Positions 4,499 through 5,323 of a stretch of DNA of 11,586 nt are shown piece after piece. The notes under the pieces are model-generated. The model saw nothing but the letters and a program-made list of their open reading frames with translations. It did no database searches and was not told the DNA's origin. Location: assembly GCA_041576165.1 (NCBI GenBank), contig JBFGLM010000090.1, forward strand, positions 1 to 11,586, written 5' to 3'. A program made the position numbers and the translations under genes. How positions within the stretch are numbered: the stretch's first letter is position 1; every line of letters starts with the position of its first letter. Source of the DNA: Acidimicrobiia bacterium (GTDB lineage Bacteria; Actinomycetota; Acidimicrobiia; Spongiisociales; Spongiisociaceae).

Positions 4499-5323
4499 CT
4501 AGTCCGCGGACGCCTGAACAACCGGGTCTTTGGCACTCGTGATGAGATAACGCCGCAGCAGGCCCTCCTTCACTGCCTTGATAGCTCGGCGTCGGTTGGC
4601 TTGGCGCTCGGCGAAGTCGTCCGCCCCGACCAGCCGCCGCAAGGCCGTTGACTCCGCATCCCACTCTCGAACCCACGCTCGCAACGTCATTAGGTAGTCC
4701 TCGGTCACGTCGACCATGTCGACGGCTGCGAAGCCGGCAGTTGTCATCAGGCGCGGGTATCCGGGTCCCGCTTCGACTTCGGGCGGTCCCGCCTCGATCG
4801 CCGCGGCGATCATGTTGCGGCTCAGGCCATCGGCGACGGCAATCACGACGAAGCAGATAGTGCCCCCTGGTTTGAGGACCCGATGCGAGGCTCTCAGCAC
4901 GGAGAGCTTGTCGGGCAGTCAACACAGCACGTCGGAGCTGGTGACGGCGTCGAAGCTCCCGTCGCGAAACGGCAACGTCTCGCCGGACGCAGCCAAGACG
5001 TGGCCGGCGACTTGGTCGCGCTGCAGGCGGCGGGAGGCGACACGCAGGCCGTCCCACGGAATGTCGGTGAGCACGACTCTGGCGCCCGTTGCGGCAGCGA
5101 AGTAGATGCCGGGCCAGCCTGCCCCGCTGCCGATGTCGAGGAGTAGCTTGCCCGGCTCGAGGTCGAGCAAGCCGGCCATCTGATCCGCTTGGGCTCGAGT
5201 GGTGTAGCTGGTTGCCCCGTAGTCACAGCCGATGACTCGTCGCTCGACACGGCGCATCGCCTCGTTCTCTACAAGGCGATAGCGCTCATTGCGGTCGGCA
5301 ACGGTCTCGTCGAGATTGCCCAT
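4499..5323 (-). CDS. Class I SAM-dependent methyltransferase, predicted selenoprotein (274 aa, Sec135 encoded by TGA 4919-4921, Cys-Sec motif)
   Basis: Track ORFs 4919..5323 and 4499..4900 share one frame. The joined sequence gives a complete fold: LLDIGSGAG (motif I), VVLTD, LPFRDGSFDAVTSSDVLC*LPDK (motif II), RVLKPGG (motif III). A SECIS-like hairpin follows the TGA. Confidence 0.82.
4878..4918 (-). promoter_or_regulatory. Bacterial SECIS-like stem-loop
   Basis: mRNA reads UGA CU GCCCGA CAA GCUCUC CGUGCU GAGAGC CUCGCA UCGGGU. Lower stem GCCCGA/UCGGGU, perfect 6-bp upper stem GCUCUC/GAGAGC starting after an 11-nt spacer, and a 6-nt loop with GU at positions 2-3. Confidence 0.75.

Follow-up and report, generated by a model that had tools for sequence, protein, structure and literature searches.

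A predicted selenoprotein family of class I SAM-dependent methyltransferases with a vicinal Cys-Sec motif in Acidimicrobiia

The gene and its in-frame UGA codon

The DNA analysed here (the window) is a stretch of 11,586 nt from an Acidimicrobiia bacterium (GenBank assembly GCA_041576165.1, contig JBFGLM010000090.1, positions 1 to 11,586 of the forward strand). On its minus strand, at 4499-5323, lies a gene for a class I S-adenosylmethionine (SAM)-dependent methyltransferase in which codon 135 is UGA, and this codon is predicted to be decoded as selenocysteine (Sec, U). The gene and its elements, including the hairpin that resembles a selenocysteine insertion sequence (SECIS), are as follows:

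4499..5323, minus strand: predicted complete selenoprotein gene, class I SAM-dependent methyltransferase, 274 codons (ATG 5323-5321, TAG 4501-4499)
4922..4924, minus strand: Cys134 codon TGT, first half of the predicted vicinal Cys-Sec pair (Cys in 119/120 homologs and in 80/80 loci)
4919..4921, minus strand: UGA codon 135, predicted to be read as Sec (aligned with Cys in 117/120 homologs; TGA in 30/80 loci)
4890..4907, minus strand: SECIS core hairpin, 6-bp stem GCUCUC/GAGAGC and 6-nt loop CGUGCU (encodes L140-A145 within the peptide KLSVLRA)
4879..4915, minus strand: outer helix CCCGA/UCGGG around the core hairpin, of doubtful role (found in the minimum free energy (MFE) fold of the window; these columns vary unpaired in homologs)

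Two minus-strand open reading frames (ORFs) of the window make up the gene: 4919-5323 (134 aa, ATG start) and 4499-4900 (133 aa, GTG start), which share one frame because 4918-4900 = 18. Translation of 4499-5323 with TGA read as U gave 274 residues, with U135 as the sole internal stop and a terminal TAG. The residues around this position are FDAVTSSDVLC-U-LPDKLSVLRASHRVLKPGG (longer context FDAVTSSDVLC-U-LPDKLSVLRAS). An earlier reading of these letters (the original prediction) had described two ORFs in one frame split by a single TGA over 274 codons, and this was reproduced exactly together with the quoted peptide. The order of elements that it gave, a TGA after a Cys codon with a SECIS-like hairpin next, also holds (TGT 4924-4922, TGA 4921-4919, hairpin 4907-4890). 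TGA terminates 6/9 ORFs of the window as an ordinary stop, and the genetic code is therefore standard.

The TGA is no sequencing error. Contigs from four runs (three other studies), spanning 4892-5400 or 4888-5400, carried no variant letter at 4919-4921. This recheck rests on assembled contigs rather than on the raw reads named in the original prediction, so that its concern about a base-call error was answered at the level of contigs from four other runs. Past the UGA, no further stop was met until the aligned C-terminus in the window gene and in the related Sec loci. Downstream, over codons 148-262, the proportion of nonsynonymous differences was below that of synonymous differences (pN 0.457, pS 0.658; 378 pairs); because pS is saturated (about 0.66 in the flanks), proportions are given in place of dN/dS and the measure of constraint is rough. 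Protein-level constraint thus persists in the C-terminal half after the UGA.

Exchange of Sec and Cys at codon 135

Among database homologs (n=120, E 3e-96 to 8e-55), the residue at column 135 was Cys in 117/120, and column 134 was Cys in 119/120, resulting in the conserved motif DVLCCL. Whole-genome searches with stop codons read through recovered the gene from 5/60 relatives, with TGA in every one. A paralog in the window's own genome (contig C36, 56% identity) also has TGA at the matching site, and in all seven translated loci the TGA stood at the identical Cys-Sec (CU) position. In a class sample of 401 genomes the gene was present in 14 (E <= 1e-30), of which 13 carried TGA at the CU motif and one (G322) carried Cys.

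A scan using one genome per species yielded 80 loci, in which codon 135 was TGA (30 loci), TGC (37 loci) or TGT (13 loci), and Cys134 was found in 80/80. The recurrence of TGA together with the hairpin at one aligned column in 30/80 loci is therefore more than chance. Homologs with Trp or Arg at codon 135 would have spoken against the original prediction, and it was Cys that predominated. By record label, the Sec forms (n=30) came from 18 Acidimicrobiia-type metagenome-assembled genomes (MAGs), from 6 other Actinomycetota (Nitriliruptorales, Mycobacteriales and Frankiaceae among them) and from 6 records with other labels (two Kiloniellales, Acidobacteria, Candidatus Sulfomarinibacteraceae, Gammaproteobacteria and 'bacterium'). 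Of the 50 Cys forms, 8 were labelled as Acidimicrobiia-type and 42 as Proteobacteria.

A conserved SECIS hairpin downstream of the UGA

The first base of the hairpin lies 11 nt past the UGA, and its arms and loop are GCUCUC (4907-4902), CGUGCU (4901-4896) and GAGAGC (4895-4890). The 66-nt stretch that holds it has an MFE of -21.3 kcal/mol. The consensus of the Sec forms, GCUCUC-CGUGYU-GAGAGC, is near-invariant with the 11-nt spacer fixed, and RNAalifold, run on 16 distinct Sec forms, returned exactly the 6-bp helix. In these 16 sequences 97.9% of the paired cells could pair, versus 30-57% in controls in which the 3' arm was slid by 1-3 columns. Compensatory changes were seen at two pairs (U17:A30 to G:C once, U19:A28 to G:C twice), the covariation score was reached by 0/500 shuffles, and the loop letters G22, U23 and G24 were invariant in 16/16 sequences. 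The 11-nt spacing and the loop G-U agree with the minimal SECIS of E. coli fdhF.

The hairpin is specific to the TGA-containing genes: all six pairs were intact in 27/29 full-sequence Sec forms (five pairs in the other two) and in 0/50 Cys forms. At codons 139-145 the median synonymous divergence was 0.167 in Sec forms versus 0.771 in Cys forms, with flanks at 0.66-0.73 in both. Codons 139-141 read AAG-CTC-TCC in 30/30 Sec forms, and the Arg144 codon was AGA in 24/29, AGA being the rarest Arg codon in the window genes (7/208). The outer helix is not conserved.

Depth in the metagenome contigs of four runs rose three- to five-fold at 4876-4943, and many otherwise unlike contigs matched the window over only about 45-66 nt (4888-4955), a segment that holds the CU codons and the SECIS. 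This short island of matches among unlike contigs is an independent sign of CU-SECIS conservation. The near-invariant SECIS could serve as a simple nucleotide marker for the family. As a side observation, breaks in the Logan contigs that carry the window sequence itself fall near 4890-4917, and the conserved SECIS acts like a short repeat in assemblies.

Selenocysteine machinery

In the window's genome (G000; 96.5% complete, 7.5% contamination), selA, selB, tRNA-Sec and selD were all found above cut-offs: two selA (423 and 422 bits), two selB, two tRNA-Sec genes (79.9 and 72.9 bits) and selD (397 bits). The search for selA, selB, selC and selD proposed in the original prediction was therefore positive throughout, with selA, selB and tRNA-Sec in two copies each. 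The selD gene (L001, G000:C1:171385-172317, minus strand) itself contains an in-frame TGA, placing U within the canonical SHGAGUACK, and a hairpin (AGCUCG-GUCCCGG-CGAGCU) begins 7 nt after its UGA.

Across the class sample, selA was above cut-off in 272/401 genomes (a tally that takes in the unpublished genomes G254, G315, G424 and G295), and it was present in 12/13 of the Sec-form genomes. G322, the sole Cys-form genome of that sample, was without selA, selB and tRNA-Sec, and selA was found in 0/4 genomes of its genus (g55).

The duplicated genes of G000 (two selA-selB pairs, two tRNA-Sec and two methyltransferase paralogs, on contigs C24, C100, C1, C145, C36 and C90) make it look like a mixed bin. 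A contig of G319, a genome of another family, is identical to window 3002-6823 at 3812/3822 bases (99.7%; L030, G319:C91), and selA, selB and tRNA-Sec were found in G319. The selenoprotein conclusion is independent of the bin because G000 and G319 both carry the machinery.

Distribution of the two forms on the tree

In a maximum-likelihood tree built from 85 rows (two short rows excluded, midpoint root only), 42 proteobacterial rows, every one of them Cys, formed a clade apart from an actinobacterial-type clade with 35 Sec and 8 Cys rows (Shimodaira-Hasegawa-like approximate likelihood ratio test support 99). The Sec/Cys state required at least three changes on the tree, a value matched by 0/500 label shuffles, and two well-supported Cys clades sit nested among the Sec forms. 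Because of this nesting and of the near-identical SECIS, the simplest reading has Sec gained once, with reversions to Cys afterwards, the direction being inferred with the midpoint root. Four Sec forms whose MAGs bear the label Kiloniellales, Acidobacteria or Gammaproteobacteria (L045, L048, L046 and L098) fall inside the actinobacterial-type clade, which suggests horizontal transfer or mis-binned contigs.

Assessment of UGA recoding

The Sec/Cys exchange, the conserved SECIS and the machinery all favour predicted Sec decoding and agree with the intact selenoenzyme of the original prediction. On this sequence evidence, 4499-5323 (minus strand) is very probably a genuine selenoprotein gene with UGA codon 135 predicted to be Sec-decoded; this degree of confidence covers the selenoprotein call and excludes the chemistry. 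Some observations weigh against the call. One Sec-form genome (G039, 98% complete) had tRNA-Sec at 80.2 bits and neither selA nor selB above cut-off, and the contig of the window (C90) may be mis-binned in G000. A search of Rfam over 4400-5400 (E up to 10) gave zero matches, which weighs little: to our knowledge Rfam holds no general bacterial SECIS model, and the null result is uninformative for that reason.

A pseudogene would arise if a nonsense mutation had turned TGC or TGT into TGA in an ordinary CC-motif methyltransferase and left the two ORFs as decaying remnants. TGA is indeed one substitution from either Cys codon and is the usual stop of the window (6/9 ORFs), and public gene calls give short proteins for such genes. 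This explanation is nevertheless highly improbable, since the identical codon would have been hit in 30/80 species-level loci with no second stop or frameshift after it, the C-terminal half is still under protein-level constraint, the hairpin specific to TGA forms is kept at synonymous sites, and the TGA forms cluster on the tree, where three state changes suffice. Low-level read-through of UGA does occur in bacteria, and the codon could be read as another residue (Trp or Cys, by a near-cognate tRNA) or be reassigned, with no selenium involved. Against such a reading, TGA closes 6/9 neighbouring ORFs, the aligned residue is Cys and not Trp or Gly, and a dedicated hairpin is found in a genome with the full Sec machinery. 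In the class sample, the single genome with the Cys form is one without selA, selB and tRNA-Sec, and decoding as anything other than Sec has very little probability.

Annotation of the family and its absence from catalogues

A search with the N-terminal ORF returned 211 candidates, including 95 short proteins at E <= 1e-20, and 90/95 of these end in ...DxxC exactly before the UGA. Where a name was given, it was class I SAM-dependent methyltransferase, methyltransferase domain-containing protein, UbiE or CFA-synthase-like; none was named a selenoprotein. Annotation pipelines thus fragment the gene, as had been expected in the original prediction.

Comparison with curated selenoprotein hidden Markov models, also proposed there, gave no assignment. 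In NCBIfam release 20.0 no model reached its curated cut-off, the best being the DVU_1556 family (57.8 versus 155 bits), and none of six natural Cys homologs exceeded any NCBIfam cut-off (DVU_1556 maximum 72.3 versus 155). Table 1 of PMC13188914 (2026) lists 119 prokaryotic selenoprotein families. Methyltransferases are represented in it by arsenite methyltransferase (UxxG), methylated-DNA-protein-cysteine methyltransferase, MduS (CxxU, two Sec), methyltransferase/UXPK-star and two ArsM fusions, and none of these has a CU motif. In the accessible text of a 2022 review, the methyltransferase selenoproteins are ArsM and the DNA-repair enzyme only. The word 'methyltransferase' occurs nowhere in the main text of the deep-Sep paper, nor in the Actinomarina preprint. 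No prior description of the family was found in the literature searched, and a mention in Haft and Tolstoy 2025 (mSystems) or in supplements is possible.

Within the catalogues and literature searched, the family appears uncatalogued. The recoding is canonical for bacteria and methyltransferase selenoproteins are already known. Of the original view that methyltransferases are unusual hosts, the part stating that most selenoproteins are redox enzymes stands, and any suggestion of an unprecedented host does not, as ArsM, MduS and others are already on the list of selenoproteins. Gene callers miss selenoproteins systematically, and at least 90 distinct public gene-call clusters stop at the UGA and bear generic methyltransferase names. 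Cataloguing the family would correct annotation in many genomes of Acidimicrobiia and other Actinomycetota; selA is common in the class (272/401 genomes).

Fold and active-site position

Pfam searches assigned the protein to Methyltransf_11 (PF08241; 74.5 bits, cut-off 21.2), with Methyltransf_25 at 66.4 bits, and the motif I (GxGxG) glycines G65, G67 and G69 are invariant in the family. An AlphaFold model (39 sequences) had a mean predicted local distance difference test score (pLDDT) of 93.2. Foldseek matched this model to AtPMT, TleD, RebM and PfPMT at E 1e-17 to 1e-19 (probability 1.00 to RebM, PMT and TleD), and the nearest solved structures also include AtmM, MitM and a putative sarcosine/dimethylglycine methyltransferase. 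As modelled, the protein is a class I SAM-dependent methyltransferase of about 30 kDa and of the RebM / phosphoethanolamine-N-methyltransferase (PMT) structural type. An ESM Atlas search with a natural homolog (P0002) returned generic bacterial methyltransferase clusters only.

HMMER alignments placed Cys134-Sec135 opposite His140-His141 of RebM (LHHMPDR), and Sec135 opposite the His of AtPMT2 (RDTILHIQDK) and of MitM (IIHMPDR). The His at this position in RebM, AtPMT2 and MitM is, we assume, the base that acts in catalysis next to the SAM methyl group. PDB titles list the PfPMT mutants H132A, D128A and Y19F, and we take His132 of PfPMT to be its catalytic His, equivalent to that of AtPMT2. 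Asp131, four residues ahead of Sec135, is invariant in the family, as are the polar residues E27, T42, K139, R258 and D205. DSSP assigned residues 131-138 of the model to a loop between a strand (124-130) and a helix (139-149); in class I methyltransferases the loop after that strand lines the acceptor pocket. In place of the catalytic His of these enzymes (PfPMT His132; RebM His140/141), the alignment has Cys134-Sec135. Judged by this alignment, the family is PMT/RebM-like in fold and probably not a functional member of those O/N-methyltransferases.

One database homolog, P0059 (302 aa), covers 67% of the query at 59% identity, with the surroundings of the CU site and the C-terminus scrambled. 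It has the appearance of a Sec form whose gene model was mis-called or frameshifted.

Comparison with known systems

RebM (3bus), MitM, AtmM, TleD, PfPMT and AtPMT have the same fold, length and C-terminal helical lid as the present protein (Foldseek E 1e-15 to 1e-19, TMq 0.69-0.77, profile E down to 1e-27). Shared elements are motif I and the Asp that stands four residues ahead of the catalytic position. None of them is a selenoprotein, their identity to the protein is 16-25%, and their own His (RebM H140/H141, AtPMT2 RDTILH, MitM IIHMPDR) is replaced here by Cys134-Sec135.

The ArsM selenoproteins (NF008823, UxxG; fusions ArsM/AhpD NF041537 and ArsM/DUF2284 NF041536) are likewise Sec-containing class I SAM methyltransferases, and their Sec/Cys handle a soft metalloid beside SAM (PMC13188914 Table 1). 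The present protein scored far under the cut-offs of these models (44.3 versus 263, 54.9 versus 510 for ArsM/AhpD and 51.3 versus 575 bits for ArsM/DUF2284), and its Sec motif is CU in contrast to the UxxG of ArsM, both of which place it outside ArsM. Arsenic methyltransferase structures were weak matches (profile E 1e-6), the fold neighbours being RebM and the PMTs instead. Some arsenite methyltransferases function with a single cysteine (PMC8649762, where a two-cysteine ArsM is met in the reference list only). TtArsM of that paper serves only as a precedent for ArsM variants having few cysteines.

MduS and MTase/UXPK-star are also recently recognised selenoproteins with a methyltransferase domain (PMC13188914 Table 1). 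They have two Sec each, in CxxU and UxxG motifs, whereas a single CU is found here; the scores (30.3 versus 380 bits for MduS, 50.9 versus 460 bits for MTase/UXPK-star) lie outside both families, as does that for the DVU_1556 methyltransferase family (57.8 versus 155 bits).

The Cys-Sec dipeptide itself is shared with the CU-motif selenoproteins SaoL (MerB-like), HgcA, SaoC, MbdU and KCU-star, where it lies at a functional site, as is predicted here. Truncation at the CU site is typical of gene calls for these organometallic CU selenoproteins (bioRxiv 2022.07.06.499078; PMC13188914 Table 1). Their folds are unrelated, none is a SAM methyltransferase, and no gene neighbourhood shared with them was seen at the present loci. 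The algal 'MT' of Ostreococcus and Thalassiosira was described by Lobanov et al. 2007 (PMC2375036) as a predicted SAM-dependent methyltransferase selenoprotein and a homolog of a bacterial selenoprotein; it is also listed in PMC7539508. Algal MT is eukaryotic and was compared with the present family by description only. The algal SECIS is situated in the 3' untranslated region.

MddH and MddM1/M2 (H2S/methanethiol S-methyltransferases) were considered as an identity and rejected: MddM1/M2 are proteins of 204-210 aa in the UbiG/UbiE families (available text of PMC12904073 and PMC11445057) and were set apart from the 270-aa RebM-like family by description, not by sequence.

Proposed mechanism and alternative chemistries

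In the proposed mechanism, the SelA/SelB/tRNA-Sec/SelD system would decode UGA codon 135 as selenocysteine, the SECIS 11 nt downstream presumably bringing SelB and Sec-tRNA(Sec) to the ribosome as in the known bacterial mechanism. The ribosome would then continue through the C-terminal half, producing a vicinal Cys134-Sec135 pair in the loop after strand beta-4. From the recoding signature, SECIS, machinery, fold and aligned position observed here, we infer the following chemistry. Sec135 would stand in for the His of RebM (His141), AtPMT2 and MitM and so be located at the methyl-acceptor site, where the selenolate/thiolate pair may hold a soft substrate for S(N)2 attack on SAM. Candidate soft substrates are arsenic, selenium or tellurium species, sulfide, a persulfide or a thiol, and the His-base chemistry of the O/N-methyltransferases would have been swapped for chalcogen or metalloid methylation.

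Given that the protein is a selenoprotein, such a methylation site for soft (chalcogen/metalloid) substrates is the preferred chemistry, plausible and somewhat short of probable. Several points weigh against its metalloid/chalcogen part: no ars, mer or sulfur gene was a conserved neighbour over the 80 loci, the family has only two invariant Cys/Sec positions, and the catalytic Cys of ArsM presumably lies a few residues upstream of the Sec135 position. The pair could alternatively form a selenenylsulfide ring and act as a redox switch or centre that gates an ordinary small-molecule O/N-methyltransferase, a parallel being the C-terminal Gly-Cys-Sec-Gly of thioredoxin reductase. The vicinal CU dipeptide is present and the nearest solved structures are small-molecule O/N-methyltransferases, and most of the prokaryotic selenoproteins that PMC13188914 lists are redox proteins. 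No thioredoxin-like partner, however, is conserved as a neighbour in the 80 loci. With His replaced by Sec, the usual O/N chemistry would also be without its base, and a redox role is on balance unlikely. Sec135 might itself accept the methyl group, in a Se-methyl-Sec ping-pong relay or as a single-turnover acceptor: selenolate is a strong nucleophile, the alignment puts Sec at the site of acceptor-nucleophile activation in RebM and the PMTs, and the listed Sec-containing methylated-DNA-protein-cysteine methyltransferase is a predicted precedent for a methyl-accepting Sec. We consider this distinctly unlikely, as we know of no class I SAM methyltransferase with the covalent methyl-enzyme intermediate that it calls for, and the invariant polar residues E27, T42, K139, R258 and D205 suggest a bound small substrate.

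The family may be the first selenoenzyme family in which Sec replaces the catalytic His of a RebM/PMT-type methyltransferase, carrying out chalcogen/metalloid methylation or a Se-methyl-Sec relay; this wider claim is tentative and somewhat improbable. Nearly all known selenoproteins are redox enzymes, and in a SAM methyltransferase a Sec that lines the acceptor pocket in place of the usual His would point to a different chemistry, for which the natural Cys forms are ready comparators. If soft-substrate methylation were true, volatile methylated compounds of S, Se or As could have an unrecognised source in this family, since it is frequent in Acidimicrobiia of marine and sediment origin and its Cys form occurs in Alpha- and Gammaproteobacteria.

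Genomic context

On the same strand as the methyltransferase gene, an MFS (major facilitator superfamily) transporter gene (5401-6711, minus strand) stops 77 nt before the methyltransferase start. Farther upstream are genes for an MBL-fold (metallo-beta-lactamase) protein (6837-8006, minus strand) and a luciferase-like monooxygenase (8038-8979, minus strand). These genes and the methyltransferase gene form a possible co-directional cluster, and a GcvT-like protein is also encoded among the window neighbours.

The window neighbours are not conserved around the gene in 80 related loci. When ORFs of at least 90 aa were clustered over these loci in search of a conserved operon partner, the commonest cluster was found in only 9/80 once the methyltransferase and two antisense shadow ORFs had been set aside. 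The commonest neighbour clusters were ABC ATPase, MetE-like Meth_synt_2, TPR-cyclase, histidine kinase, GST, AMP-binding enzyme and acyl-CoA dehydrogenase. With no shared neighbour, gene context therefore gives no functional lead.

Elsewhere in the window, a 157-aa ORF at 1524-1997 (plus strand) has a GC content at third codon positions (GC3) of 0.60 versus 0.78-0.88 in its neighbours and no Pfam match; it is perhaps not a genuine gene, or it may be foreign. A near-perfect inverted repeat, GACGCATCCCG ... CGGGATGCGTC, was spotted by eye at 4360-4395. It sits between the convergent trypsin-like gene (end 4340) and the methyltransferase gene (end 4499) and looks like a shared terminator.

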